Positions 5,339 to 22,392 of a stretch of 64,000 nt of DNA are shown here, piece after piece. The position numbers and the translations under genes are program-made. The DNA is from Candidatus Bathyarchaeota archaeon. GTDB taxonomy: Archaea; Thermoproteota; Bathyarchaeia; Bathyarchaeales; Bathycorpusculaceae. Positions within the stretch are counted from its first letter, which is position 1; the number at the start of each line of letters is the position of its first letter. The stretch covers positions 32,001-96,000 of the forward strand of contig CAWEPZ010000002.1 of the NCBI GenBank assembly GCA_963811105.1, written 5' to 3'. Below the pieces are notes generated by a model, which worked only from the letters and a program-made list of their open reading frames with translations, was not told the DNA's origin and did no database searches.

Positions 5339-6118
5339 ATGATAACTTTGACTAGCGACTTTGGCCTCAAAGACCCTTATGTGGCAGAGATGAAGGGCGT
5401 AATCTTAACTCTAAACCCAAAAGCCACGCTAATTGACATAAGTCATGGTATTGAAAAGTTTAACATACGAATGGCCGCTTTCACTTTAGCTTCGGCAGCA
5501 CCATACTTTCCAAATCGCACCGTCCACTTGGCAGTTGTTGACCCTGGCGTTGGCACTCAAAGACGCGCCATTTTAATCCAGACCAGAAAAGGCTTTTTTA
5601 TAGGGCCTGATAATGGGATTTTAATTTTAGCGGCTAAAAACCAAGGTTTAGAACACATATACCAGATTACTAATGCCAAGTTGATGTTGCCGAAAATCTC
5701 TGATACTTTTCACGGAAGAGATATTTTTGCTCCTGCAGCAGCTTACTTAGATAAAAACGTTGAGCCAAACGAGTTTGGGGAGGAAATAAAAGATCTAGTT
5801 GAACCCGAATTCGCAAGACTAACTCGAAGAGGTGATGCTTTAATTGGCGAGGTCTTGCACATAGACGGTTTTGGCAACATTATCTCAAATATAAACGAGA
5901 AAAAGTTGCCACAAAAGAATTGTAAAATCATGACCGTTAAACTTCTTCAAGCTTCTTTAAAACTTAAGTTTGGCAAAAAATATGCCGAGGTAGAACCTAA
6001 CGAGCCGGTTGTTTTGATTGGAAGTCATGGGTTTGTGGAAATAGCGCTAAACCAGGGCAGCGCCGCGGAAAAGTTCTGTGCAAAAGTTGGAGATAAAATC
6101 TCAGTTACGCCTACTTGA
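5339..6118 (+). CDS. SAM hydroxide adenosyltransferase (DUF62, chlorinase/fluorinase family)
   Basis: ITLTSDFG, VVDPGVG, GPDNG, TFHGRDIF, IDGFGN motifs. Confidence 0.92.
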   Translation: MITLTSDFGLKDPYVAEMKGVILTLNPKATLIDISHGIEKFNIRMAAFTLASAAPYFPNRTVHLAVVDPGVGTQRRAILIQTRKGFFIGPDNGILILAAKNQGLEHIYQITNAKLMLPKISDTFHGRDIFAPAAAYLDKNVEPNEFGEEIKDLVEPEFARLTRRGDALIGEVLHIDGFGNIISNINEKKLPQKNCKIMTVKLLQASLKLKFGKKYAEVEPNEPVVLIGSHGFVEIALNQGSAAEKFCAKVGDKISVTPT

Positions 6119-7087
6119 GTTATCAACAATTCTTTCGATTACGTCAACAGGATTCTCTAATTCTGCCAGCTTACTTTGTACCTCAAATCTTTTGCCGATA
6201 TACTTTTTGGCGTATGAGACCACTTGACGTTCTGAAGTGGCGAACAATGGGAACCCCTTATGAGATAGATACTTGTTAACATAAGTTTTAGCCATATCAG
6301 AAATTGCTATGCTGGGAATCCCTTGAAGAGCGGCTTCTCTTGCAATTGTTCCTCCATAACTAATAACTAAATCAGCGTTAGCAACCAAACTCGCTGAATC
6401 AACAAATCGGTCTTTAAATCCAAAAGATCTGCTCTTATTGTTATATCTTTGAATAAAATGCACTTTCCCAAACTTTGCAAGTTTTTCTGCGAGGATTTGT
6501 GCAGAATCCGTATTTCCGCCAGCGTAAGCTGCCTTCGACTCAATCTGCCTTATAACTATCAGTGGCTTCTCTAACCCAGCGATTTTTAGGGGTTTGAAAT
6601 TTTTGATCCAGGCAACTTCATCTACCCCTTTGTATGTTACAATATTTTTGGCGCAATACTCTCTTGTAAATTGTTTAGGTAAAGCCTCTGAAACTACGAC
6701 TGTGTCCGCAAAGGGTATTGTTAACCTGTTGACGGCTTTGGCATATGGAGTATCTGCCGTGAGAATGATTGGGATTCCCAAGCCAAAAGCGGTTCGGCAA
6801 AGCTCAACCGACTGATGCGCTATTGCAACGTCCGGAGGGCTTTCCTTGAACATCTTAGAAAATTGAATTATACGTTCGGCGCTCTCTTCCAATCTTGAGG
6901 AAAGAGTCGATGGGTCATACTTTCCAACGACAATTGGTTTTTCTTCTAGAATTTTTGCTAATGGTATGGTGTCTGTGTGTTCACGGGTTGTAAAAATGAA
7001 TTCGTGACCTGCTTTCCTGAGACGTTGTCCAATAGCCGTGCCATATCTAATGTGCTTTCCTGTGCAGGCGTCATACCATATTTTCAT
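6101..7087 (-). CDS. DUF354 family GT-B fold protein
   Basis: MKIWYD...KH, GVDE, GGTIAREAALQGIP motifs; likely start ATG 7087. Confidence 0.8.
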   Translation of the reverse strand: MKIWYDACTGKHIRYGTAIGQRLRKAGHEFIFTTREHTDTIPLAKILEEKPIVVGKYDPSTLSSRLEESAERIIQFSKMFKESPPDVAIAHQSVELCRTAFGLGIPIILTADTPYAKAVNRLTIPFADTVVVSEALPKQFTREYCAKNIVTYKGVDEVAWIKNFKPLKIAGLEKPLIVIRQIESKAAYAGGNTDSAQILAEKLAKFGKVHFIQRYNNKSRSFGFKDRFVDSASLVANADLVISYGGTIAREAALQGIPSIAISDMAKTYVNKYLSHKGFPLFATSERQVVSYAKKYIGKRFEVQSKLAELENPVDVIERIVDNSSRRN

Positions 7088-7091
7088 TTGT

Positions 7092-7595
7092 TCACCCTTT
7101 TCTTGTTGCAATGAAAGATTCACGTTTAGCTTCATATTCTTCTAAAGTCATTACTATTTGTGCGGGAACGCCTGCGGAAACTGTACGCGCAGGAACATTT
7201 TTGGTAACCACGCTTCCGCCGCCAATAACTGCTTTTTCTCCTATTATCACATCTGGTAGTACGGTTACGCCTCCGCCGATTGCAACCCCGTCTTTGATGA
7301 TTGGCGGTGTCATGAAAGCGCTTTTTGGGTACTTGTCATTTAGAAGTGAACTGTTGGGAGCAATAAACACGTTATCGCCTAAAATGCAGCCGTTTGAGAT
7401 GGTTACATGTGCTTGTATGTTGCAGTTTTTCCCTAAAACTACATCTTTTCCAATGTCACAAAAGCTTCCTATGAGAGTGCCATCGCCAATTTTAGTGTTG
7501 TCGCCAATTACAACATAATTCCAAATGGCGACGTTTGCACCTATTTCTACGTTTATCCCAGTGATTATTCCCTGGCCTTTCTTTGCAATTAGCAT
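7092..7595 (-). CDS. Hexapeptide-repeat N-acetyltransferase (WbpD-like)
   Basis: Left-handed beta-helix repeats, NDKYP, GGGSVVTKNVP...GVPA. Confidence 0.85.
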   Translation of the reverse strand: MLIAKKGQGIITGINVEIGANVAIWNYVVIGDNTKIGDGTLIGSFCDIGKDVVLGKNCNIQAHVTISNGCILGDNVFIAPNSSLLNDKYPKSAFMTPPIIKDGVAIGGGVTVLPDVIIGEKAVIGGGSVVTKNVPARTVSAGVPAQIVMTLEEYEAKRESFIATRKG

Positions 7596-7666
7596 AGCTT
7601 TCCTTTCGGGCTCCGGATTTAAATAGTTTAACTCTAACTTGACATTCTAGTGCCGAGGCAAAAATC

Positions 7667-8539
7667 GTGACCAAAGAAACAGTTCTAATTGTCGGGTTAG
7701 GAGAGATTGGCCATACCCTTTTTGCATTATTTAAAGATGCAAAAAACAGTTTTGATGTTTATGGCTTGGATTTAGATAAAACAAAAATGCGCGAGCTTAA
7801 CCAAAACAGAAATGATTTTCCAAGCAAAATAGACACCCTACATATTTGTCTGCCTTGCAGTAACCAACAAAACTTTGCAGACATAACAATGGATTATGTG
7901 GATGATTTTAATCCAAAACTTGTAATTATCAACAGCACTGTGCCTCCAGGGACAACGATGAAAGTAGCAGAAAGAAGCAAGTGCCTTGTGGCCCATTCAC
8001 CGTCGCGTGGGGTACATAAAAGTCTCAAGCACATGGTTTGGGAAATGAAGCGTTGGACCAAATATGTTGGCGGCGCCAACCCGGAAGCGGGGCAGTCTGC
8101 TCAGACCCATTTTGAGAAGCTAAGTCTGAAAGTGAAGGTCTTGAAAACTTGTTCAGAGACAGAGTTGGCAAAGCTTTTTGAGACAACTTACCGTGCTTGG
8201 ATGATAGCTTGTTTCCAAGAGATGCATCGAATTTCCAGAGCATTCAATGCTGATTTTGATGAAACCGTTGATTTCCTTGAGGACACTCATCGGTTAAGGT
8301 TTGATAGGCCTGTCATGTTTCCAGGCGTAATTGGCGGACACTGCTTGATTCCCAACACTGAATTGTTGTTGAAAGCTTATGATTCAGAGTTTCTGCGGTT
8401 GATTTTGGAGTCCAATGAGAAACGTAAGGATGAAGTAAAAGATAAAACGGTTGAGGCAGAGGTAAAGAAAGTTGCTGCAAGAGCTGAAGCCTTAGAGAAG
8501 GATCTTACATCGCGAAAAAGTAGGAGCGAATGTGAGTGA
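7667..8539 (+). CDS. UDP-glucose/GDP-mannose dehydrogenase family protein (short form)
   Basis: GLGEIG Rossmann motif, STVPPGTT, ELAKLFE, GGHCL catalytic Cys. Confidence 0.8.
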   Translation: MTKETVLIVGLGEIGHTLFALFKDAKNSFDVYGLDLDKTKMRELNQNRNDFPSKIDTLHICLPCSNQQNFADITMDYVDDFNPKLVIINSTVPPGTTMKVAERSKCLVAHSPSRGVHKSLKHMVWEMKRWTKYVGGANPEAGQSAQTHFEKLSLKVKVLKTCSETELAKLFETTYRAWMIACFQEMHRISRAFNADFDETVDFLEDTHRLRFDRPVMFPGVIGGHCLIPNTELLLKAYDSEFLRLILESNEKRKDEVKDKTVEAEVKKVAARAEALEKDLTSRKSRSECE

Positions 8540-8553
8540 TCAGTTTTTTCAGT

Positions 8554-8957
8554 TTACCATCCTATTGCAGTTGTTAAGTAAACTCTGCCATTTTTGTACT
8601 CATGGGTGAAAGGGAAGACTGCGCCTTTACTCCACCGAGCTACGATTGTTGAAACATTACTTATAGAAATTAATGCATAACAACAGTAAGCGTCAATGAG
8701 GTATAGTTGGTTTTGAGTTGAAAGAGATATGCGGAAAGAATTGTTGACAGCCAGATTGGCGCTTCCACTTGAGTTTATGAATTGAGCGCTGCCGAACCAG
8801 TCCTGCAGGGAAGTAAGGTAGTGACCGCCATATAGTTAGGCCACATATCTTTGCAGTAAGTTGAAAAGTAGCAGGGTATTCCGCCGATGATAGTAACGTT
8901 GCAGTTGTTGGTTAGGCAGTCTCTTAATTTGTTATCTTTTGGTACAACTCGAACCAA
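8554..8957 (-). pseudogene. Frameshifted gene remnant, probably from an extracellular protein
   Basis: Two abutting open frames: ...IIGGIPCYFSTYCKDMWP then YGGHYLTSLQDWFGSAQF...FTHEYKNGRVYLTTAIGW* (about 94 stop-free codons with no ATG). Confidence 0.45.
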
Positions 8958-9043
8958 GCCTCAAAAATGACTAGCGCTATAACCGGACAAGTCATCAATT
9001 GTCTGCTAGAGGTTTATGCCGGTGAGTTTTGTTTTCAATTGTT

Positions 9044-10268
9044 TCAAATTACTTTTTCAAATGCTTCTTCCATTTGTTGAGCATATTTTTCCCAAGATAA
9101 ATGTTCCTTAACGTAATTCGAAGCGTTTTTACCTATTCTCTCGCGAAGAGTCGGATTAGTTATTAGATTCTCAACTTTTTTTGCTATCTCTTCTGGCTTT
9201 CCATTTTCAACAAGCATTCCATTGACGTTATCCTGAATAATCTCCGCGACCCCACATCCTTTAGCAACTATCGCGGGCTTTGATGACGCCATTGCTTCAA
9301 CAGTGGCAAGTCCCCACGTTATTTGATGAGGAAAAAGGAATACATCACAAGCCGCGTATACTTTAGCTAAGTCTTCATCACATTTGGTATGCCAAAAAAG
9401 GACCTTATCTTTTACATCAAGCTTTTCACTAAGCTTTTTCAGCTCTACTTGTGAACCTGCGCCATCTAGGATAAGCTTAATGTTACTATGGTTTTTAGAC
9501 AAATAATATAACGCCTTTATGGAATCAGATTGTCGTTTAGGATCTAAATTGGCAACTTGGAGTAGAATAAAATCTTTTTCCAAACCATATTTCTTTCTTA
9601 CTTCCTCTCCAGAAATATTCTGAAACTTTTCGACGTCTAATCCAGTTCTCACCACGGTAGAAGGCTTATTGTAGGCGTCTCTTACCAAGTTCTCCCCAAC
9701 ACGCGATAATACAATTATTCTGTCGATGTATTTTACAGAAATTTTGTCCCATATTCCAAATAGGGGCCAATTAATTTTTTTCCTTATGCCTCTTCCTTTT
9801 CATGTAGAACCATGATGGAGGCTCATTGCACATCCATACTACTGGAACTCTTAATCTTCTTTTTGCAATAAAGGCCGCCCATTCTGTAGGCTGGTTGTGG
9901 TTATTGATTACTTCAAACCCTTTTGGTATCATTCTTCCCAAATTAAGCATAGCTGGAAGCCCAAACGTATAAAACTGATGGACCAAGATTCGTTGAAGTT
10001 GATTCCTAACATTTGTAATCTTTCCAACTTTGCCAAAAGAAGATACAGGTAAATCGTTATCATATTTAAATGGAACAAAGCGATTACGCAGCATAACGTT
10101 AATGGTTACTTGTTTCAGCAACTCAGGATAACAAATCTTTTCGTTAACCCCTGTCGTGAATATTTCCACTTCGTTTCCAAGTTTTTGGAGCTCTATAGCC
10201 AAGTTCAAAAGTTGTCTTTCTGCACCACCACGTCCCCATAATGCTGTATGAACCAATGCAATTTTCAT
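9044..10268 (-). pseudogene. Glycosyltransferase family 4, split by a frameshift near 9775-9800
   Basis: The two ORFs together with the intervening frame (GIRKKINWPLFGIWDKISVKYID) align end to end with the paralog at 12313-13584. Confidence 0.85.
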
Positions 10269-10357
10269 GACTGTTTCACAAGTATTGTTTTATGAGGATA
10301 GTTTAAGTTTATATATTTGTACTTTTAGTATCAACTAAGTTTTTGAGAGGTTTAAAA

Positions 10358-11068
10358 GTGAAGATTAAGACTGCAGTTATATTAGTTGGAGGCGCAGGTT
10401 TGCGCATGCGACCTTTCACCGAAGACATGCCCAAATGCATGGTTCCCCTTAAGGGGAAACCTCTAATACACTGGATAATATCATGGCTGAAAGATTACGG
10501 TTTCAAACACATCGTATTAGGTGTTGCTTACCGAAAAGAGGCAGTCATTAATTATTTAAAGGATAACTCGCAAGGTTTGAAGATAGATTTTAGCGAGCAC
10601 ACAGTTGAAGGAGAAACTGGAGAGGGCTTTCGTCTCGCAATAAGCAGGTTCGTGAAGGATGATGATTTCTTGGCGATGAATGGAGATGAAATCACTAGTT
10701 TGAACTTGGGACGTCTCGAAGAGTTACATTTGATGCATAAACCTTTGGCAACGATTTCTGTTGCGCCGATGCGTTCACCTTTCGGGATACTTGAACTTGA
10801 AGGTGATGATATTGTGTCTTTCAAGGAAAAACCTTTGGTTGAAAACATGTTCGTCAGTATTGGTGTATATATTTTCAACCGGAGAATACTTGATTATATT
10901 CCCGAGAATGGGTCCATCGAAAAAACGGTTTTTCCGTTACTTGCTGAAAAGCGAGTTTTGAAAGCGTGCGTACTCAAGCCTGAGGAGTTATGGTTAACTA
11001 TTAATAGCGTTAAGGACTTATCTGTTGCAGAAAAAGAGTTCGCTGCGTTACGGAGGTCCCAAACATGA
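10358..11068 (+). CDS. Sugar-phosphate nucleotidyltransferase
   Basis: LVGGAGLRMRPFT..PK, NGD, FKEKP motifs. Confidence 0.9.
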   Translation: MKIKTAVILVGGAGLRMRPFTEDMPKCMVPLKGKPLIHWIISWLKDYGFKHIVLGVAYRKEAVINYLKDNSQGLKIDFSEHTVEGETGEGFRLAISRFVKDDDFLAMNGDEITSLNLGRLEELHLMHKPLATISVAPMRSPFGILELEGDDIVSFKEKPLVENMFVSIGVYIFNRRILDYIPENGSIEKTVFPLLAEKRVLKACVLKPEELWLTINSVKDLSVAEKEFAALRRSQT

Positions 11069-12036
11069 CTAGAGCGTTAATAACAGGAATCATGGGTTTT
11101 ATAGGAAGTCACCTAGCGAAGAAACTCGTTGAAGAGAACGTTGAAGTATATGGTCTTGTGCGAAGAGTAGCAAGTCGAAACATGGAAGTTATTCACGATT
11201 TATTGCAAGATATTACTCTAATCTCAGGCGACGTTTCTGACTACGTTTCTATTCTGAATGCGGTCAAGACAGCTAATCCTGACGTGATTTTCCATTTAGC
11301 GGCGTTGTCACCTGTCCGAGATTCGTTTGAGCGCCCTTTTGAATATCAGCAATCTAACTATATTGGAACTATGAACATTGCGCATTCTCTGCTTTCCCTT
11401 CAAGATCCGCAGACGAGAGACTTTATAGCTGCATCAACAGCCGAAGTATATGGGATACAGAAGAACGAACCCTTAAAGGAAAGCTTATCTCTGAATCCAT
11501 CCAGTCCGTATGCAGTCAGCAAAGCTGCGGCCGATCTCTATTTGCGTATGATGTTTAGTTCTTACAATTTGAATGGTACCATATTGCGGCCTACAAACTC
11601 GTACGGTAGGAAATTTGACACAAGTTTCATGGTGGAGTATACCATTACTCAGATGTTAAAGGGCCAGAAAGTGTACGTTGGCTCTCCTGATTCGATAAGA
11701 GACTACATGTACGTCGATGACCACGTGAACGGTTATATGTTATCAATGACGAATGAAAAAGCTAATGGCCAGGTTTACAACGTTGGAACAGGAATTGGCG
11801 TGAGCAACAAGGAGCTTGTAATGATGATCGCTGACAAAATAGGATTTGACAAGAAGAACCTCGTTTTTGGTTCCTATCCTCCTGGCTATCCGTACAGACC
11901 ACTAATTTCCGACCAGTCATCAATAGTTCTGGATGCCACGAAAATAAAAAAAGACTTGGGTTGGAAGCCAACGATTTCGCTAACTGAGGGAATTGACCGA
12001 GTAATCTCTTATTTTCGAAAAAGCGGAAACAAGTAG
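11065..12036 (+). CDS. NAD-dependent NDP-sugar 4,6-dehydratase/epimerase
   Basis: TGIMGFIG, HLAA, STAEVYG, YAVSK SDR motifs. Confidence 0.9.
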   Translation: MTRALITGIMGFIGSHLAKKLVEENVEVYGLVRRVASRNMEVIHDLLQDITLISGDVSDYVSILNAVKTANPDVIFHLAALSPVRDSFERPFEYQQSNYIGTMNIAHSLLSLQDPQTRDFIAASTAEVYGIQKNEPLKESLSLNPSSPYAVSKAAADLYLRMMFSSYNLNGTILRPTNSYGRKFDTSFMVEYTITQMLKGQKVYVGSPDSIRDYMYVDDHVNGYMLSMTNEKANGQVYNVGTGIGVSNKELVMMIADKIGFDKKNLVFGSYPPGYPYRPLISDQSSIVLDATKIKKDLGWKPTISLTEGIDRVISYFRKSGNK

Positions 12037-12312
12037 AGTTAAAAAGGAAAATTAGATTGATGCACAAAAAACTTGGTTGAAGCCAACTTTAGCTAATCGA
12101 AGACTGCTACACGTTTCAAAAAACGGTAGTCGAACATGAAGGTAAACTAAAGCGGTTTCTAAAAATTTTAGTGATTCAAACTGATAGTTAATTAGAAACG
12201 CCTTTATCAGCAGTTCTCGTCTTGTATTCTTCTAAATAATTCCTCAATTATTTAAAGAGACAAATTTATAAGACCAAAGTATTGCTCTAAGCTTAACTGG
12301 AATGCAGACCCT

Positions 12313-13584
12313 ATGAAAGTGGCGCTGATTCACACTCCGCTGGTAGGACGAGGTGGCGGACAAAGGCAAATCCTGAATCTAGCTTTTGAACTTCAAAGAA
12401 TCGGACATGAAGTCGAAATTTTTACAAGTGCAGTTAACAAAGAAAAATGTTACCCAGAATTGATAGAAAAACTCACGATAAACGTTATTTCGCATCCATT
12501 AGGAAATGAGATGCCCAAATGGTTTATTCCTTCTGAGATCCAGCAAAAAGCGAACTATACTGAACCTGCAGAATCCTCTTCTTTACGGAGTTGGATGCGA
12601 AAAGCCATGGGACGACAATTTTACACAATTCCGTACGACTTCCCATCCATGCTTAACATAGGCAGAAAAATACCTAAAGGTTTTGACATAATCAATAACC
12701 ATAATTTTCCATCTGAATGGGCAGCTTTTTTCGCGAAAAAAAGACTAAATGCCCCAGTTGTTTGGATGTGTAATGAACCGCCAGATTGGTTTTTCGCTTC
12801 CGAATCTCGAAAAGGCTTGCGCAAAATTAATTGGCCAATTTATGAAATGCTGGACAAAACGGTCTCAAAGTACATCGATGAGATTTTAGTTCTATCGAAA
12901 ATTGCTCAGGGGCATGTAGATAAAGCTTACCACAGATCATCGAGGATTGTGAGAAGTGGTGTAGATGTTGAACTTTTTCATAACGCTTCAGGAACCGATA
13001 TCAGAGAGAAATACGGACTGGGTAAAGACTTTGTTTTGCTACAGGTCGGGAATTTTCAACTCAGTAAGGGGCAAACTGATTCCATAAGGACACTTTATCA
13101 TCTTTCTAAGAATTATGATCAAATCAAGCTGATACTTGACGGTGGCGGTCGAAAAGAAGAGTTAGTAAGATTAAGCGAAAGACTTGGGGTAAGAAACAAA
13201 GTGTTATTTCTACACAGTAACGATGACGAAGAGCTCGCAAAGGTTTACGCTGCTTGTGACGTTTTTCTTTTTCCACAACAAATAACCTGGGGTTTAGCGT
13301 TGATCGAGGCAATGTCTGCTTCAAAACCTGTTATAGTCTCCAATAAATGTGGAGGTTCAGAAATTATTCAATCCAACGTGAATGGTATAGTTTTTGACCA
13401 AGCAAAACCAGAAGAGATAACAAAACAAGTAGAACTGTTAATTAACAATACCCACTTACGCAAAAAACTTGGGGAACATGCCTATGAATATGTTAAAAGC
13501 AATCTATCATGGGAAAAATACGCGAGGACGATGGAAACAATCTTTGAAGAGGCCCTCTTGAACTTTAACAAAAAGAAGCGATAA
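12313..13584 (+). CDS. Glycosyltransferase family 4
   Basis: GRGGGQR N-terminal loop; YAACDVFLFP...WGLALIEAM. Confidence 0.9.
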   Translation: MKVALIHTPLVGRGGGQRQILNLAFELQRIGHEVEIFTSAVNKEKCYPELIEKLTINVISHPLGNEMPKWFIPSEIQQKANYTEPAESSSLRSWMRKAMGRQFYTIPYDFPSMLNIGRKIPKGFDIINNHNFPSEWAAFFAKKRLNAPVVWMCNEPPDWFFASESRKGLRKINWPIYEMLDKTVSKYIDEILVLSKIAQGHVDKAYHRSSRIVRSGVDVELFHNASGTDIREKYGLGKDFVLLQVGNFQLSKGQTDSIRTLYHLSKNYDQIKLILDGGGRKEELVRLSERLGVRNKVLFLHSNDDEELAKVYAACDVFLFPQQITWGLALIEAMSASKPVIVSNKCGGSEIIQSNVNGIVFDQAKPEEITKQVELLINNTHLRKKLGEHAYEYVKSNLSWEKYARTMETIFEEALLNFNKKKR

Positions 13585-13700
13585 GCGACTAGCGCTATGC
13601 GACTTAATTTTTGAAATGTATTCGTTGTTGTTTTTGCCTGATTATATAAATAGCGAATCTTCTTTAGGGATAACAGTTGAAGTCATATCTTGGGAATGGC

Positions 13701-14603
13701 ATGATTGACAAAGTTGATTTAGTGATGTGGACTAAGAACGGTGCCCAAACCCTCCCTGCAGTCCTGCAACGGATAAATGAAGTAATTCCTCAAGAATTTG
13801 TTTATAAGAAAATTGTGGTGGACGATGGAAGCAGTGACGGTACCCAGAATATCGCCTCTTCTTTTGGCTGGACGGTTATTCCAAACAAAGGCCATGGTAT
13901 AAGCAATGGTGCTAACACAGCCCTAGAAGCAGTGACATCGGACTTTTTCATAAGCTTCGAACAAGACCTATTATTAGCTCCAGAGTGGTGGCAGAAAATT
14001 CCTTCACTCGTTGAAAACTCCAACGTTGCAGTTGCATCTGGAATGCGTTTTGCAGATAAGCCAATTGGGATTAAAAAAATGCAGCAGTACGTAGCGAAGA
14101 AATATCGTGGAGAAGCAAACTTAGCTTCTTGGCTTAAGTCTAGGGATATGTCGGCTTTTACTTTAGGTAAAACATTAGACAATACGATTTACAAAGCAAA
14201 AATAATCCGACAACTCGGGGGGTTTCCAACATTGCGAGTAACCGCTGGTGTCGATACCACTTTAGCATACAAAATTAATCATGCTGGTTACAAATGGGTT
14301 GTTGATTATACTATGCAATCTGTCCATGTTAGAAAGGGGTTAAGGCAAGAACTGGATCATCAATATTGGTATGGAGCGCAATTATACGAGATTTGGAGAA
14401 AAATACTAGCGGAAACAGATATACCCCCGCCTGTAACTAGAAGTGGAGTTATCCGTCGTTTCGTTATGTCTCCATTTACTGGATTGTTTCTGGCATTCCA
14501 AACTAGGGAACCGACAGTTCTATACATTCATCCTTTAATTAGATTTTACTACATGAAAGGACTTCTACATGCTTCGAAAGTTCAAGAATCAGGTAACAGC
14601 TGA
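13701..14603 (+). CDS. Glycosyltransferase family 2
   Basis: VVDDGSSDGT, N-terminal GT-A fold, EQD (DxD-like). Confidence 0.85.
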   Translation: MIDKVDLVMWTKNGAQTLPAVLQRINEVIPQEFVYKKIVVDDGSSDGTQNIASSFGWTVIPNKGHGISNGANTALEAVTSDFFISFEQDLLLAPEWWQKIPSLVENSNVAVASGMRFADKPIGIKKMQQYVAKKYRGEANLASWLKSRDMSAFTLGKTLDNTIYKAKIIRQLGGFPTLRVTAGVDTTLAYKINHAGYKWVVDYTMQSVHVRKGLRQELDHQYWYGAQLYEIWRKILAETDIPPPVTRSGVIRRFVMSPFTGLFLAFQTREPTVLYIHPLIRFYYMKGLLHASKVQESGNS

Positions 14604-14680
14604 GCAATGCCTTCCCTGAATGGTTAAATTAGTAAACCCGTGTATGAAGTAAATTGTAACTGCACGGAGATTCACAGCGA

Positions 14681-16186
14681 TTGGCGAATGAGAGAGAAAT
14701 AATAAAGCTACGGTTAGATGTGGATTACCCTTATCCATCGAGGGCTAAGAGTTTTCTGTACTTAGCCTTAGGAATTAAGAAAAAAAGCAAAGATTACTTG
14801 AAGAATGCCAGAATTATAGCGAAGATGATTAATGAATCGCCAAAAGAAGTTATAGCTTACTGGTTTTTTACGCCCTACACAATTCCAGATAAAAGAACTC
14901 TCGATTTACTGAATCAAGAAAGGCATGAGGTCGCTCTGCACGTTGCAACCAATCCCTATCAAGAATGGAAAATTCTTGAAAACGTAACCGAACGAACCAT
15001 AAGATACTATACAATTCATGGAACATCACGGGTAATTGCCCAGCTATTATGGGGACGAAAGATTGGCGAAAAGCAAACGAAGATTCCCACAGATTTCCCT
15101 TTAGAATCCTTCCATGATTTTAGGACTTATAGTTTAGATGCTGGGCGTTATACGTTAGGCTTGGAGCATATGAAGACGGAATTAGAAAAATTGACTAAGG
15201 AAAATACTGTGTTAGAAGTTCATCCTGAATGGCTCTTTAATAAGGGAAAAATAAACCCGAGAGGACCATATTATGACGTTCTAAAATACTTGTTAGATGT
15301 GGACCATGACCTTGAAACTTTGCAGCTAAAAAAGAAAATATCAATCAAAATAGCTCATGATATCAAAGAATATGAAAAAGATATTGTTCCCTCAAAGGCA
15401 TTCATTGAGAAGCTGCTTGAAAGAGATATAGACATTTTTACTTTTCTGGAAAGAAAATGGTGCTGCCCAATATCTAAACCGCCAACCTCATGGATAAAAA
15501 CAGAAGACAATATTGGCTTATTGGAAATAAAGGATTATCCGACTTGGTGGAGTAGTGTTGGAAAGAAAACTCGCAATATGGTTCGCCTGGCCGGGAAAAA
15601 CGGTTTAGAAGTGATTGTAGTCCAACCGAGCGAGAAGTTCGCAGAAGGTGTCTGGAAAATTTACAATGAAACCCCAATAAGGCAAGAGCGAGCTTTCCCT
15701 CACTATGGTGAGCCGCTTGAAGCAGTCACAAGAAATGTGATTAGCGCTCAAAAATCGACATTTATCGGCGGATTTTTGCAGAAAGAGCTTGTGGGATTTA
15801 TCCAGATAGTCCATGGTGACAACATTGCTATTATTGCTCAGATACTTTCAATGCAAAAACATTGGAATAAAGCTGTAAATAACGCGCTCCTCGCAAAAGC
15901 CGTTGAAGTTTGTGCTTTCAAAGGGGAACGGTGGCTTATGTATGGGCGAATGGGAAATCACCCTTCACTTGACAAGTTTAAGGAAAGTAGTGGGTTTGCT
16001 AAATTCCCGATTACCCGTTACTATATCACTATAACAGGGAAAGGAAAAGTAGCTACTCGATTGGGATTGCATGTGGATTTTAAAGATGCTTTGCCGCATT
16101 CTATTAAGTATCCGCTTATTCCAGTTAATAATTGGATTAGTAGGAATAGGCTTCGAATTAAACGCGTTTATGAAACCAATAAATAA
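14681..16186 (+). CDS. Fusion of polysaccharide deacetylase-like domain and GNAT/FemAB-like acyltransferase domain
   Basis: N-half RLDVD, HEVALH, TIHG, VHPEW; C-half KKTRNMVRLA, LVGF, SLDKFKESSGF. Confidence 0.6.
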   Translation: MANEREIIKLRLDVDYPYPSRAKSFLYLALGIKKKSKDYLKNARIIAKMINESPKEVIAYWFFTPYTIPDKRTLDLLNQERHEVALHVATNPYQEWKILENVTERTIRYYTIHGTSRVIAQLLWGRKIGEKQTKIPTDFPLESFHDFRTYSLDAGRYTLGLEHMKTELEKLTKENTVLEVHPEWLFNKGKINPRGPYYDVLKYLLDVDHDLETLQLKKKISIKIAHDIKEYEKDIVPSKAFIEKLLERDIDIFTFLERKWCCPISKPPTSWIKTEDNIGLLEIKDYPTWWSSVGKKTRNMVRLAGKNGLEVIVVQPSEKFAEGVWKIYNETPIRQERAFPHYGEPLEAVTRNVISAQKSTFIGGFLQKELVGFIQIVHGDNIAIIAQILSMQKHWNKAVNNALLAKAVEVCAFKGERWLMYGRMGNHPSLDKFKESSGFAKFPITRYYITITGKGKVATRLGLHVDFKDALPHSIKYPLIPVNNWISRNRLRIKRVYETNK

Positions 16187-19144: not shown

Positions 19145-19414
19145 TCAAAGTAGTAGGTCGGCAAGTAAATTATTGAGTTCTTGCCTACTCTTTACGCTTC
19201 GGAAAATCGCTTTCCCACTTGTATAGAGGCGGAAGGATGTGTCTTCGAAAGTTAATTCAAAAATTATGCCTGCAATCTTATTCTTAATTTGTGCTTTTTT
19301 TAAGATGTTTGTTATGGCCTCGTCTTTCTTATCATACTTGAAAAACACTATGACGTCTTTTTCTGCTCCGCATGTTCCTTCAATTCTGGCAACATAATCT
19401 TCAACTGAAGACAT
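19145..19414 (-). CDS. Small single-Cys protein resembling a MoeB/ThiF C-terminal (TBP-like) domain
   Basis: EGTCG and FRLYTSGKAIF motifs; start overlaps sufS stop (TAATG). Confidence 0.55.
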   Translation of the reverse strand: MSSVEDYVARIEGTCGAEKDVIVFFKYDKKDEAITNILKKAQIKNKIAGIIFELTFEDTSFRLYTSGKAIFRSVKSRQELNNLLADLLL

Positions 19415-20646
19415 TAGAGCGTTTCAATCTCCTTAAGAACCTCAACGAAACGCTCAATTTCTTCTTTTGTGTTATAAATGTAGAAGCTTGCTCGGTCAGA
19501 GGATTGGAGCTTGAGTACTTGTTGGTGGAGAGGCTGTGCACAATGGTAACCACTGCGTATCATTATACCGTAGTTATCGCAAATGAGTGCAACATCGTGT
19601 GATGACAAGCCTTTAAAAGTGAAGGGTACTATGCCGCATTTTTTAGAGAGGTCACTTGGTCCATAAAGGATTATATTGCTGCATTCCTGCATCCGCTTAA
19701 CTGCGTACATAGTTAACTCTTTTTCATGGCTGAAAACTTCTTCCATACCTAGAGCTTCAAGATACTTGACAGCTTCAGCTAAGCCAATGGCACCCTCCAT
19801 GTTAGGTGTGCCTGCTTCAAACTTCCACGGCGGCTCGTTCCACATTATGCTGCAACTTTTGCCAATGCTGAACTCAACTTCTCTAATCATTTCGCCTCCA
19901 CCTTGGAAAGGCGGCATTTCATCAAGCAGTTCTCGTCTGCAATACAGCCCCCCGATTCCTGTAGGACCCAACATTTTATGGCCCGAAAAAGCAAGAAAGT
20001 CTGCGTCTAGATCCTGAACATCGATAGCCATATGTGGCACGGATTGTGCTCCGTCAACAAGCATTAAAGCACCATTGTCATGAGCAACTTTGCCGATACG
20101 TTTAACATCATTAATTACGCCTGTAACGTTTGACACATGGCTTAAACAGGCAATCTTTGTTTTGTTGCAAAATTTGCTTTCAAAATCGTCATAATTCAAT
20201 GTGCCGTCGGCATTTACTTTAGTATATTGAATGGTGAAGCCCTTTAGTTTTGAGGTGATTTCCCAAGGAACAATGTTGCTGTGATGCTCCATTAGTGAAA
20301 CCAGAACCTCATCACCTTTGGCTAGGTTTTTTAGTCCCCAAGAATAAGCCACTAAGTTTATGGCTTCAGTTGTTCCTCTTACAAAAACCAGTTCGGAGGG
20401 ATCTTTTGCATTGACGAATTTTGCGATTTTTTCCCTTGATTTCTCATAGATGTCAGTTGCTTCAAGCGATAAGGTGTGGACTGCTCGGTGAACGTTGCCG
20501 TTGTGGTTTTCGTAAAAATCGCTTATGGCATCGATTACTTGGCGGGGTTTCTGTGTGGTTGCCGCATTGTCAAAGTAGATTAGGGGGTAGTTGTTTATTT
20601 GCCGTTTCAGTATTGGAAAGTCTTGCCTTATCGATTGTACGTCCAC
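19414..20646 (-). CDS. sufS: Cysteine desulfurase, class II (SufS)
   Basis: DNAATTQKP, EHHSN, DGAQ, SGHKMLGP, EAGTP, RSGYHCAQ. Confidence 0.93.
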   Translation of the reverse strand: MDVQSIRQDFPILKRQINNYPLIYFDNAATTQKPRQVIDAISDFYENHNGNVHRAVHTLSLEATDIYEKSREKIAKFVNAKDPSELVFVRGTTEAINLVAYSWGLKNLAKGDEVLVSLMEHHSNIVPWEITSKLKGFTIQYTKVNADGTLNYDDFESKFCNKTKIACLSHVSNVTGVINDVKRIGKVAHDNGALMLVDGAQSVPHMAIDVQDLDADFLAFSGHKMLGPTGIGGLYCRRELLDEMPPFQGGGEMIREVEFSIGKSCSIMWNEPPWKFEAGTPNMEGAIGLAEAVKYLEALGMEEVFSHEKELTMYAVKRMQECSNIILYGPSDLSKKCGIVPFTFKGLSSHDVALICDNYGIMIRSGYHCAQPLHQQVLKLQSSDRASFYIYNTKEEIERFVEVLKEIETL

Positions 20647-20648
20647 GA

Positions 20649-21167
20649 TTATTTCTCTGCCTTTTTCTCATCCTCTATCTTCAGTCTCTTAGAAAGTGTC
20701 TTCGCTAGTTCTTCTTCTTCCAGCGCCTGTTTTTCTTCGAAAGTGTGGTCTGCTGGCATCCAACTGGGTGCAGCGACACCTTTTTCCTTAAAGTACTGTC
20801 GTATTGCACGTTTCAAGGCGCCTACGGCTAGGACTCCGCAGTGGAATTTGACGCTTGGTAAGCCGCCGATTTCTTCAGTTACTTTTTTCCAAGTTATGTC
20901 AATCCAAGCTTGTTCAAGGCTTAAGCCTTTAATCATTTCAGTAACTATGCTGGATGTTGCAATGTTTGCTGCGCAGCCGTAGCTTTCAAAACTTGCCTTT
21001 TCAATGATGTCTTGAGGCGTTATTTTTAAGTAGAAGGTTATCATGTCTCCGCAAGCTGGGTTTCCTGCTACTGCTACTACGGTGGCATCATCCATTTTTC
21101 CAAGGTTTTTTGGGTTTCTAAATAAATCCATGACTTTTGGGTTGTATGGTAAAGGTATACGTGACAT
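20649..21167 (-). CDS. iscU: Fe-S cluster scaffold IscU/NifU-N with charged C-terminal extension
   Basis: NPKNLG, GNPACGD, GCAANIA, KFHC; likely start ATG 21167. Confidence 0.9.
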   Translation of the reverse strand: MSRIPLPYNPKVMDLFRNPKNLGKMDDATVVAVAGNPACGDMITFYLKITPQDIIEKASFESYGCAANIATSSIVTEMIKGLSLEQAWIDITWKKVTEEIGGLPSVKFHCGVLAVGALKRAIRQYFKEKGVAAPSWMPADHTFEEKQALEEEELAKTLSKRLKIEDEKKAEK

Positions 21168-21168
21168 A

Positions 21169-22392
21169 CTAATGCACTCCTGTTGAGCCAACTATCCCTC
21201 TTATACGATTGACAGCTGTAGGTAAAACTTCTAAAACGTAAGTTATATCCTCTTCTGTTTGATTGCGAGTGACTTTCATGAGGATACTGCCGTGTGCTTC
21301 TTCGAAAATGCGTCCGATTGCGATGAGAACGTGACTGGGTTGAAGTAGTCTGCGGCTGCATGCGCTTCCGCTGGAGACATACACTCCTGTGAGGCTGAGT
21401 TCAATGGTTAAGGCTTCGCCTTCCGCTCGTAGAATGCTGATGTTGGCGTTGTCCGGTGACCGTTTGCCCTCTTTCGGGCCGTTAAAACGTAGGTCATCTA
21501 GTTCGTCAAATATTCCGTCAACAAGCTTATCACGCAGCATACGCATTTTAGCTGTGTTTGCCTCAAAGTTTTGGAATGCAAGCTCCGAAGCCTTAGTGAA
21601 ACCAACAATTAACGGGGTGTTTTCCACCCCTGGCCAAAGCTTCTGTGTGCCAATTTGCCCTTCAAGAATGCGCTCCATGTTTATGCCATCACGCATGTAC
21701 AGTGCACCCATTCCTCGTGGACCTTGAATTTTGTAGCTGCTAACTGTGGCTAAATCAACATTTAGGTTTTGAACGTTAAATGGGATTCTACCGTAGGCGT
21801 CTGATGCATCACTGTGAAAGAGTGCTCGCGGGTTTATGTCTTTTACAATATCTACCGCTTCTTTAATAGGCTGTATTGTGCCAATCTCGTTGTTTACGGC
21901 TGAAATGCTAACAAGTATGGTTTCGTTGTCAACGGCTTCTTTGAGTTTTTCAAGGTTGATGAATCCTTCATGGTTTACTGGGATTTTTATTGTTGAGAAG
22001 CCGAATTTTTGCATCATCTCAGCCACTTGCAAGACGTTGATTGGTTCAATTTCTGATATGATGATTTTTTTGCCTTTGTTTTTCTGCGCAAAGCATGTTC
22101 CCATGATCGCTAGATTGTTAGCTTCTGTTTCTCCTGGTGTAAATGTGATTTCTTCTAAGATTTTTGCGCCTATGTCATTGCTAATTTTTTGGAAGCAGTT
22201 CATTATAACTTCGAAGGCTTCCCAGCCTGGTTTATGTGTAAGTGTTGGGTTGCCGTAGGCTCTCTTGTTAAAGTAAGGAAGCATTGCGTCAACGATTTCT
22301 TGGGGAACAATGCTTGAGTTTTCGTTGTCCAAGTAAACTTCATGTCTTATGCCTTCATGCAGTTTGAGAAGTTCCTTTACGTTTTCAACCAT
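21169..22392 (-). CDS. IscS/NifS-like (class I) cysteine desulfurase homolog with degenerate active site
   Basis: Overall IscS layout (YGNP, GETEANN, NNEIGTIQP, SSGSACS) with substitutions in the PLP and substrate motifs. Confidence 0.85.
   Translation of the reverse strand: MVENVKELLKLHEGIRHEVYLDNENSSIVPQEIVDAMLPYFNKRAYGNPTLTHKPGWEAFEVIMNCFQKISNDIGAKILEEITFTPGETEANNLAIMGTCFAQKNKGKKIIISEIEPINVLQVAEMMQKFGFSTIKIPVNHEGFINLEKLKEAVDNETILVSISAVNNEIGTIQPIKEAVDIVKDINPRALFHSDASDAYGRIPFNVQNLNVDLATVSSYKIQGPRGMGALYMRDGINMERILEGQIGTQKLWPGVENTPLIVGFTKASELAFQNFEANTAKMRMLRDKLVDGIFDELDDLRFNGPKEGKRSPDNANISILRAEGEALTIELSLTGVYVSSGSACSRRLLQPSHVLIAIGRIFEEAHGSILMKVTRNQTEEDITYVLEVLPTAVNRIRGIVGSTGVH

Follow-up and report, generated by a model that had tools for sequence, protein, structure and literature searches.

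The operon and its IscS-like protein

Within a stretch of 64,000 nucleotides from the genome of a Candidatus Bathyarchaeota archaeon (assembly GCA_963811105.1, contig CAWEPZ010000002.1, positions 32,001 to 96,000; referred to as the window), four genes on the minus strand form a compact operon with a predicted role in iron-sulfur (Fe-S) cluster assembly. The first gene encodes an IscS-like protein of 407 amino acids (21169-22392), designated IscS* here. It is followed by an IscU gene (20649-21191, an open reading frame (ORF) of 180 amino acids from a TTG start), a SufS gene (19414-20646, 410 amino acids), and a gene for a small Cys protein of 89 amino acids (19145-19414). The likely start of IscU is the in-frame ATG at 21167, which gives a protein of 172 amino acids; the orthologs comprise 162-170 amino acids. 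With this start, IscU lies 1 nt from the IscS* stop, as compared to a 23-nt overlap from the TTG, while IscU and SufS are 2 nt apart and SufS shares 1 nt with the small gene. The coordinates of the ORF list bear out the tight packing (2 bp or less, or overlapping) described in the original prediction for this locus.

The operon is flanked by a Hel308-type helicase gene, genes for hypothetical proteins, and a glycosylation cluster. Given these neighbors, the four genes represent a self-contained unit. No HscAB, Fdx, or IscA genes were seen in the operon, which was viewed together with its flanks and presents an adjacent pair of IscS-like and IscU-like genes in an archaeon. Neither sufE nor sufBCD is encoded within the 64-kb window, as had been predicted. 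Environmental reads over the operon were limited to short contigs from soil libraries, mostly labeled 'probably DNA', and do not establish transcription or an operon transcript. The sole RNA-labeled run (X3) contributed two contigs on 21309-21709.

IscS* belongs to the Aminotran_5 family (PF00266, E 3.3e-53, residues 19-383) and was aligned over its full length to solved IscS chains. Its NCBIfam scores were below the respective cut-offs, with 363.9 bits for NifS (cut-off 530.75) and 291.6 bits for IscS (cut-off 643.2). Residues were read from the alignment to solved IscS chains and IscS from Escherichia coli (NC_000913), and the positions were verified against the E. coli sequence context. In IscS, His104 stacks on the ring of pyridoxal phosphate (PLP), Gln183, His205, and Thr243' provide contacts to O3' and the phosphate, and Arg354 binds the substrate carboxylate. 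IscS* carries the exchanges A11N, T12S, A75E, H104P, Q183D, H205Y, R240W, S241P, T243V, and R354L (E. coli numbering), which are located in the motifs DNENS, EP, DASD, SSYK, WPGV, and SILMK. The residues G74, T76, N155, D180, S203, K206, and C328 are retained; K206 corresponds to K221 of IscS*, and C328 to Cys345 in the SSGSAC loop. IscS* has lost most of its PLP and substrate contacts and has kept the loop Cys. Every substitution listed in the original prediction was present in these alignments, as were the PLP Lys and the loop Cys that it had described as retained. Most of the full-length IscS representatives at 50% identity (133 among 141 aligned rows) carry H-Q-H-K-T-C-R at positions 104/183/205/206/243/328/354, and the pattern of IscS* is therefore a clear departure. 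The closest solved relatives of IscS* (9wep, 9wer, 9wew, 9wfe, 9wf8, 9wfb, and 9wfy) are point variants of one 406-aa 'cysteine desulfurase', mutated at the same active-site positions that differ in IscS*.

A class-wide search for IscS* yielded 40 loci, which were sorted into three groups. Clade A comprises 26 loci with at least 59% identity, all of which carry P104, D183, K206, W240, C328, and L354. Position 205 is occupied by Tyr in 24 of them, by Asn in one, and by Phe in one, and position 243 by Val, Ile, or Leu. The clade-A substitution pattern was also found in 5 loci from other classes. The 11 loci of clade B (~50% identical) have retained H104 and H205 and have D183, W240, P241, V/I/L/A243, and L354 in common with clade A. 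In three further loci (L078, L079, and L080; ~43% identical), with SufS adjoining or near, R354, K206, and H205 are retained, position 183 is Ala or Thr, and position 104 is Asn in two of the three. Relative to E. coli IscS, IscS* has an N-terminal extension of ~13 amino acids with an invariant His12, and both clades A and B carry the motif EVYLD-x-ENS without variation. The substitutions thus recur throughout clade A (26/26 loci), and the linkage to SufS recurs as well, with a varying gene order. Canonical residues in orthologs or a loop Cys that is not conserved, both named as contrary outcomes in the original prediction, were not found in this clade.

The close relatives of IscS* fall into more than 120 clusters at 88-100% identity, several of them source-labeled Bathyarchaeia. 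The ratio of nonsynonymous to synonymous substitutions (dN/dS) was 0.035-0.053 in comparison with four relatives, with dS approaching or exceeding saturation in the more distant comparisons, and dN of IscS* was lower than dN of SufS in the four of four pairs where both were computable. A decaying pseudogene, which had already been doubted from the intact frame, was ruled out by intact frames in 37/37 full-length loci and by purifying selection (dN/dS ~0.05). In 27 sequences of clades A and B, the replacement residues E24, N25, S26, D198, W253, L371, and M372 (IscS* numbering) are invariant, and so are K221 and the SSGSAC loop with C345; D195/D198, S218, and S219 show little or no variation. 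Because the replacement residues are themselves invariant, the pocket in this lineage appears rebuilt instead of abandoned. Within clade A, T76 varies between Thr, Val, and Ala, and N155 between Asn, His, and Pro (E. coli numbering), which argues against conserved PLP binding. The description of IscS* as a degenerate IscS holds as far as the loss of catalytic contacts is concerned, but the pocket is remodeled rather than simply dead, and residual or altered catalysis may persist.

SufS, IscU, and the small Cys protein

The window SufS scored 566.2 bits with TIGR01979 (cut-off 475.1), retains the PLP Lys and the catalytic Cys, and has invariant catalytic residues; it is as canonical as had been predicted. 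It aligns end to end with SufS from Bacillus subtilis. The best solved relatives are 5J8Q/5XT5 (452 bits), as compared to 404 bits for E. coli SufS. His350-Asp351 align to His342-Asp343 of B. subtilis SufS, where E. coli SufS has a Tyr, and His is found at the position equivalent to 350 in 22 of 23 operon SufS sequences, the window included. PMC13066941 describes His342-Asp343 of B. subtilis SufS as swapping onto the SufU Zn and making a salt bridge with SufU. Given this SufU-type His-Asp pair, direct transfer to an IscU-like acceptor is plausible. A tree of 35 sequences (FastTree) divided the operon SufS genes into two lineages.

IscU is a MisU-like NifU_N protein that scored 134.7 bits with NifU_clost (cut-off 187.9) and 59.3 bits with the SufU model (cut-off 92.5). 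It retains C37, D39, C63, H105, and C106, and these five ligand residues are kept in 41/41 partner IscUs. A C-terminal extension of ~40 amino acids is rich in Lys and Glu and does not contain Cys. IscUs paired with IscS* of clades A and B are 162-180 amino acids long, those with other IscS types 125-139. Assignment as a SufU was ruled out, as the protein is below the SufU cut-off, is IscU-type with His105, and is not matched by the SufU model beyond position 83; the scaffold is of the IscU type, as originally suggested. Among solved structures, the B. subtilis SufS-SufU pair (5XT5) is the one to which the window SufS is most similar, the His-Asp pair is kept, and the candidate acceptor IscU is a homolog of SufU. 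The window differs in that this acceptor is IscU-type, SufBCD is not adjacent, and IscS-like and TBP-like proteins are present.

The small protein contains a single Cys (C15) and gave no Pfam or NCBIfam family above cut-off. An alignment of 23 orthologs shows no variation at Cys15 or Gly16. Additional homologs, taken from other classes within the phylum, likewise have this Cys (18/18), followed in some by Ala or Gln. In the AlphaFold model (pLDDT 92.2, pTM 0.82), Cys15 is situated on the loop of an N-terminal beta-hairpin (block 11-20, pLDDT 74), which is followed by a unit of strand, helix, four strands, and helix. A profile search against the PDB led to archaeal TBP repeats (E 1.8e-5), and the Atlas also gave a TBP lead. 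In Pfam scans, TBP came up for a paralog alone (E 0.013), along with DUF3378 (E 0.0011); both matches fell below cut-off.

The profile of the small protein also matches an E1-like protein of the ThiF family (348 amino acids, in ~30 genomes) over its last ~90 residues; the core of this protein is PF00899 (E 3.7e-77). In the same genome, this protein is encoded outside the window (contig C2:351686-352732; L085:1187-2233). Its C-terminal domain, for which there is no Pfam model, has a near-invariant W-L-C-G motif (17 domains aligned). An hhalign comparison of the small protein with this domain gave a probability of 96.3% (E 1.5e-9, 79 columns) with the Cys(-Gly) aligned, and both profiles match archaeal TBP. 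BLASTP gave no alignment between the small protein and the E1, and the relation is visible to profile methods only. No longer, fused form was obtained by a profile search at E<=1e-5, which is weak evidence; the E1 fusion was found through the genome search only. By profile comparison, the small protein is homologous to the C-terminal domain of E1 proteins of the ThiF family and stands alone. The TBP-like domain of archaeal and bacterial E1-like ThiF/MoeB proteins covered by Makarova & Koonin 2010 (PMC2948915) and Brindefalk et al. 2013 (PMC3597702) is homologous and fused, whereas the small protein is free-standing in an operon with SufS, IscS*, and IscU; the passages of the two articles considered here contain neither this context nor experimental data on the fused domain, and Brindefalk et al. 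state that experimental information on it is lacking. Genome G157 carries a second copy of the small protein (L086:1858-2127, minus strand, profile match at E 2.7e-23), which immediately follows a molybdopterin-oxidoreductase-like gene (531 amino acids) and has neither SufS nor IscU beside it.

As a candidate persulfide carrier and partner of SufS, the small protein may be compared to SufE, CsdE, and TusA (E. coli IscS-TusA, 3LVJ), which likewise are small single domains with one essential Cys and are encoded beside a desulfurase. It differs from them by its predicted TBP-like fold, and no Pfam, NCBIfam, or solved relative was found among sulfur carriers, the carrier role being a putative one. 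No paper describing such a protein was found in the literature searched, relative to which a Cys protein of predicted TBP fold as a SufS-coupled gene is new.

Gene linkage and further Fe-S genes of the genome

Linkage was analyzed by searching 301 genomes of the class for IscS*, SufS, and, by its profile, the small protein. The best IscS* match was at least 60% identical in 65 genomes, namely the own genome, 47 of 48 genomes of its family, and 17 from elsewhere in the class; another three genomes with IscS* fragments only were excluded. The counts were read by hand and, as related genomes are kin, are descriptive and not statistical. SufS (E<=1e-60) was present in 64 of the 65 IscS* genomes and in 198/301 overall, and the small protein in 65/65. 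SufS adjoins IscS*-IscU in at least 58 of the 65 genomes, with coordinates missing for three, and is located after IscU, before IscS*, or convergent to the pair. These three positions, together with the two SufS lineages, suggest repeated recruitment. Where SufS is elsewhere, the small protein remains with IscS*-IscU (L047, L056).

Clade B showed a different arrangement. All 11 loci have the order DsrE-TusA-IscS*-IscU, with names confirmed by Pfam. The small protein was found in none of the 11 genomes and SufS in two. In the remaining nine, the clade-B IscS* is the only IscS/SufS-like protein.

Outside the class, 18 small-protein loci were fetched. One contained the full operon (L118), four IscS*-IscU-small protein (L119, L120, L121, L134), and one SufS-IscS*-IscU-small protein (L122). 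SufS-small-protein tandems without IscS or IscU nearby were found in L123, L125, and L135, with a clade-B-like IscS* elsewhere in these genomes. In L124, L126, L127, and L128, SufS and the small protein are divergent from IscS*-IscU, in L130 the small protein is divergent from SufS, and in L129, L131, L132, and L133 it stands alone. Genome G641 carries SufS and the small protein and gave no IscS* match. Since pairs of SufS and small protein occur without adjacent IscS or IscU, no gene is tied to SufS more closely than that of the small protein. With its invariant Cys, it is not the appendage that the original prediction had made of it.

The genome assembly (3.49 Mb, 96.65% complete) contains a second IscS-IscU locus on contig C11:919243-923334, where the following genes lie together on the minus strand of L002: TusA (2637-2921), a Lys-less IscS2 (1429-2616), IscU2 (1044-1427), a Cys-rich ORF (889-1257), and a DsrE-like gene (473-988). 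IscS2 is a true ortholog of IscS2 from Archaeoglobus fulgidus (4EB5, match at E 2.6e-138) and has in common with it the exchanges Q183A, H205N, and K206D as well as a missing Arg354 (R354M in the IscS2 of this genome). In a tree of 111 IscS homologs (FastTree only, SH-like support, midpoint root), clades A and B join with a support of 99 and lie in the opposite half from the K206D group. As IscS* and the Lys-less type belong to separate clades, IscS erosion with retention of the loop Cys arose at least twice independently. IscS* as an ortholog of A. fulgidus IscS2 was ruled out, as it retains the Lys and belongs to a different clade.

Seven Aminotran_5 proteins are encoded in the genome. Of these, SufS is the only cysteine desulfurase of canonical type, the eroded IscS proteins account for two more, and the remaining four are an aminotransferase, MfnA, O-acetylhomoserine sulfhydrylase, and CobD/HisC. 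SufE was not found in this 96.65% complete genome or in any of the 301 class genomes, with a control that was positive in 5 of 14 reference genomes. One SufC-like/SmsB-like pair is present on another contig. All three NifU_N proteins of the genome are below the SufU cut-off (TIGR01994, 92.5), with 59.3 bits for IscU, 80.0 for IscU2, and 43.7 for the third. The latter (157 amino acids, contig C11:1448000-1462000, L012) is degenerate, with C63R and H105D. By reading of translations, its neighbors are a Mrp/NBP35-like ATPase, two small NifX/NifB-like ORFs, and two MinD/CobQ-type 4Fe-4S ATPases, and the cluster is located ~5 kb upstream of the SufC-like/SmsB-like pair.

Proposed sulfur supply to the IscS*-IscU pair

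In the reading to which we give an even chance, IscS* and IscU form a scaffold complex that is not a desulfurase, and SufS supplies the sulfur, probably by way of the small Cys protein, by direct transfer to IscU, or both. The operon would then encode a MIS-type (minimal IscS-IscU) Fe-S assembly unit in which IscS* no longer makes sulfur. IscS* and IscU would form the usual (IscS-IscU)2 complex, with Cys345 serving as cluster ligand and/or persulfide relay to IscU by the precedent of A. fulgidus, and the presumably co-transcribed SufS would make sulfane sulfur in trans. Its persulfide could pass to the 89-aa protein of predicted TBP fold, which would act like SufE or TusA with Cys15 on its exposed hairpin loop, and/or directly to Zn- or apo-IscU by means of the SufU-type His350-Asp351. 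In related archaea, the same core would be paired with TusA and DsrE instead; this sister clade with TusA and DsrE in place of SufS indicates an interchangeable sulfur-donor module. The binding and sulfur-transfer steps, as well as the loss of PLP binding and of desulfurase activity in IscS*, are what we infer from sequence.

The closest known system is A. fulgidus IscS2-IscU (4EB5, 4EB7, 4HVK; D199K variant 4R5F), an 'inactive cysteine desulfurase paralog' which, like IscS*, has the type I fold and is encoded beside IscU. According to PMC8918507 (section 10) and PMC7585200 (discussion), IscS from A. fulgidus is inactive as a desulfurase but contributes its Cys as a ligand to the [2Fe-2S] cluster on IscU, and these articles call the origin of the sulfur an open question. 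A non-catalytic, Cys-retaining IscS beside IscU is therefore already known, and the pseudo-enzyme idea of the original prediction is not new as a concept. Both IscS2 and IscS* have lost the substrate Arg and Gln183 and kept the loop Cys, and the same role, a scaffold partner with a Cys ligand, is proposed for both. They differ in that A. fulgidus IscS2 has an Asp (Asp199) for the catalytic Lys and keeps the stacking His, whereas IscS* keeps the Lys and has lost the His. In addition, IscS* is linked to SufS and the TBP-like Cys protein, whereas the A. fulgidus-type locus of the same genome has TusA and DsrE; TusA and DsrE are likewise linked to the sister clade of IscS*. The MIS system of archaea (MisS-MisU), a minimal system defined by Garcia et al. 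2022 as cited in PMC13066941 and PMC12442378, shares with the operon a two-gene core of IscS-like and IscU-like proteins, with no chaperones, ferredoxin, or A-type carrier in the operon. MisS is described as a cysteine desulfurase, whereas the MisS-like IscS* is devoid of most catalytic contacts and has a type II SufS alongside.

Several observations weigh against a scaffold fed by SufS. The conserved K206, D180, and S203 and the invariant replacement residues would suit a remodeled, working pocket no less than a dead one. Clade B, with H104 and H205 kept and SufS missing from 9 of 11 genomes, may still do chemistry or use sulfide, and SufS could equally serve the SufC/SmsB-like scaffold elsewhere in the genome. 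One IscS* genome (G006, 94% complete) gave no SufS match, SufS lies far from the operon in three group-A genomes (G077, G268, and G136), and kinship among the genomes makes the linkage counts overstate independence. Structure comparison of the small protein was not decisive either: with VIA, TBP reached a Z score of 5.9 over 79 aligned residues and the top hit, PH1819, one of 6.1, the rows being tied and middling, and Foldseek against the PDB gave no match at E<=0.001 (best E 0.086). Homology to the E1 domain, itself seen in profiles, gives no direct indication of sulfur transfer.

A more specific proposal, which we consider tentative and somewhat improbable, would make the small protein the third dedicated SufS acceptor after SufE and SufU. 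Its Cys would take the SufS persulfide and deliver it to IscS*-IscU, which would be a core with plug-in donors. By homology, the C-terminal TBP-like domain of the E1 proteins may then be a persulfide-receiving domain, like the rhodanese domain in MOCS3/Uba4. If true, this would explain how 'dead' IscS-IscU pairs of archaea come by their sulfur.

Alternatively, IscS* could still be an enzyme whose rebuilt pocket binds PLP, pyridoxamine phosphate (PMP), or another ligand for another substrate or reaction, so that SufS and IscS* would be two catalysts of one pathway. The invariant or nearly invariant K221, D195/D198, S218, and S219, the replacement residues fixed across both clades (E24, N25, S26, D198, W253, L371, and M372), and the dN/dS of ~0.05 are all compatible with such an enzyme, as are H104 and H205 of clade B, which is the sole IscS/SufS-like protein in 9/11 of its genomes. 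A. fulgidus IscS also binds PMP or PLP despite the missing Lys (PMC8918507, section 10). The stacking His is, however, replaced by Pro and the Arg for the substrate carboxylate by Leu, the phosphate contacts H205 and T243 have become Tyr and Val, T76 varies within clade A, and IscS* scores far under every curated desulfurase cut-off. We consider an active IscS* unlikely.

The linkage could also reflect co-regulation only. IscS*-IscU would then use free sulfide, and SufS and the small protein would feed the SufC/SmsB-like scaffold, or thiolation or molybdenum cofactor synthesis via a ThiF-type E1. Such a separation of functions is suggested by the SufS-small-protein pairs that lack adjacent IscS or IscU (L123, L125, L135), by genome G641, which has the pair without an IscS* match, by the three group-A genomes with SufS elsewhere, by the SufC/SmsB-like pair in the genome, and by the homology of the small protein to the E1 domain; a sulfide route has been published as a proposal for A. 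fulgidus (PMC8918507, section 10). Nevertheless, the operon genes are 0-2 nt apart or overlapping, at least 58 of 65 genomes have an adjacent SufS, for which there are three arrangements and two lineages, and even loci that lack SufS nearby can retain the small protein beside IscS*-IscU (L047, L056). Mere co-regulation seems to us about as improbable as an active IscS*.

The relay as originally proposed, in which SufS docks onto IscS* and persulfurates its loop Cys for delivery to IscU while the small protein has no part in the transfer, is quite improbable: the invariant SSGSAC loop, the linkage of SufS to IscS*-IscU, and the absence of SufE and SufU would agree with it, but the Cys of the small protein is invariant and its gene tightly coupled to SufS. 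To our knowledge, there is no precedent for one fold-type-I dimer persulfurating another, which also counts against this route. The SufU-type His-Asp pair of SufS points to an IscU-like acceptor instead (PMC13066941). From the hybrid SUF/ISC relay, the conserved Cys-retaining IscS* linked to IscU and to SufS as the sole canonical desulfurase, with SufE absent, has stood, but passage from SufS via the Cys of IscS* to IscU is only one of three allowed routes.

With SufS as the favored donor to a scaffold of IscS* and IscU, the operon and its relatives provide a concrete, testable answer to how inactive A. fulgidus-like IscS-IscU pairs obtain sulfur, the question raised in section 10 of PMC8918507. 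A non-desulfurase IscS-IscU core would be encoded with interchangeable donors, either SufS and a small Cys protein or TusA and DsrE. SufU appears to be derived from a MisU ancestor, according to PMC13066941, and a SufS together with an IscU-type protein represents a presumed forerunner of the SufS-SufU pair. Moreover, the operon hints at a possible function for the uncharacterized TBP-like domain of E1-like enzymes. Relative to the literature searched, both the Lys-retaining, His-less IscS clade with its invariant rebuilt pocket and the systematic coupling of this clade to SufS are new. No paper on a Lys-retaining eroded IscS with SufS was found there, although Garcia et al. 2022 may already classify these sequences.

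Elsewhere in the window, a radical-SAM protein with an HMPTM-type zinc ribbon is encoded at 597-2105 on the minus strand, and a long cluster of glycosyltransferase and sugar-nucleotide genes extends from 6101 to 16186. Both are apparently unrelated to the operon.

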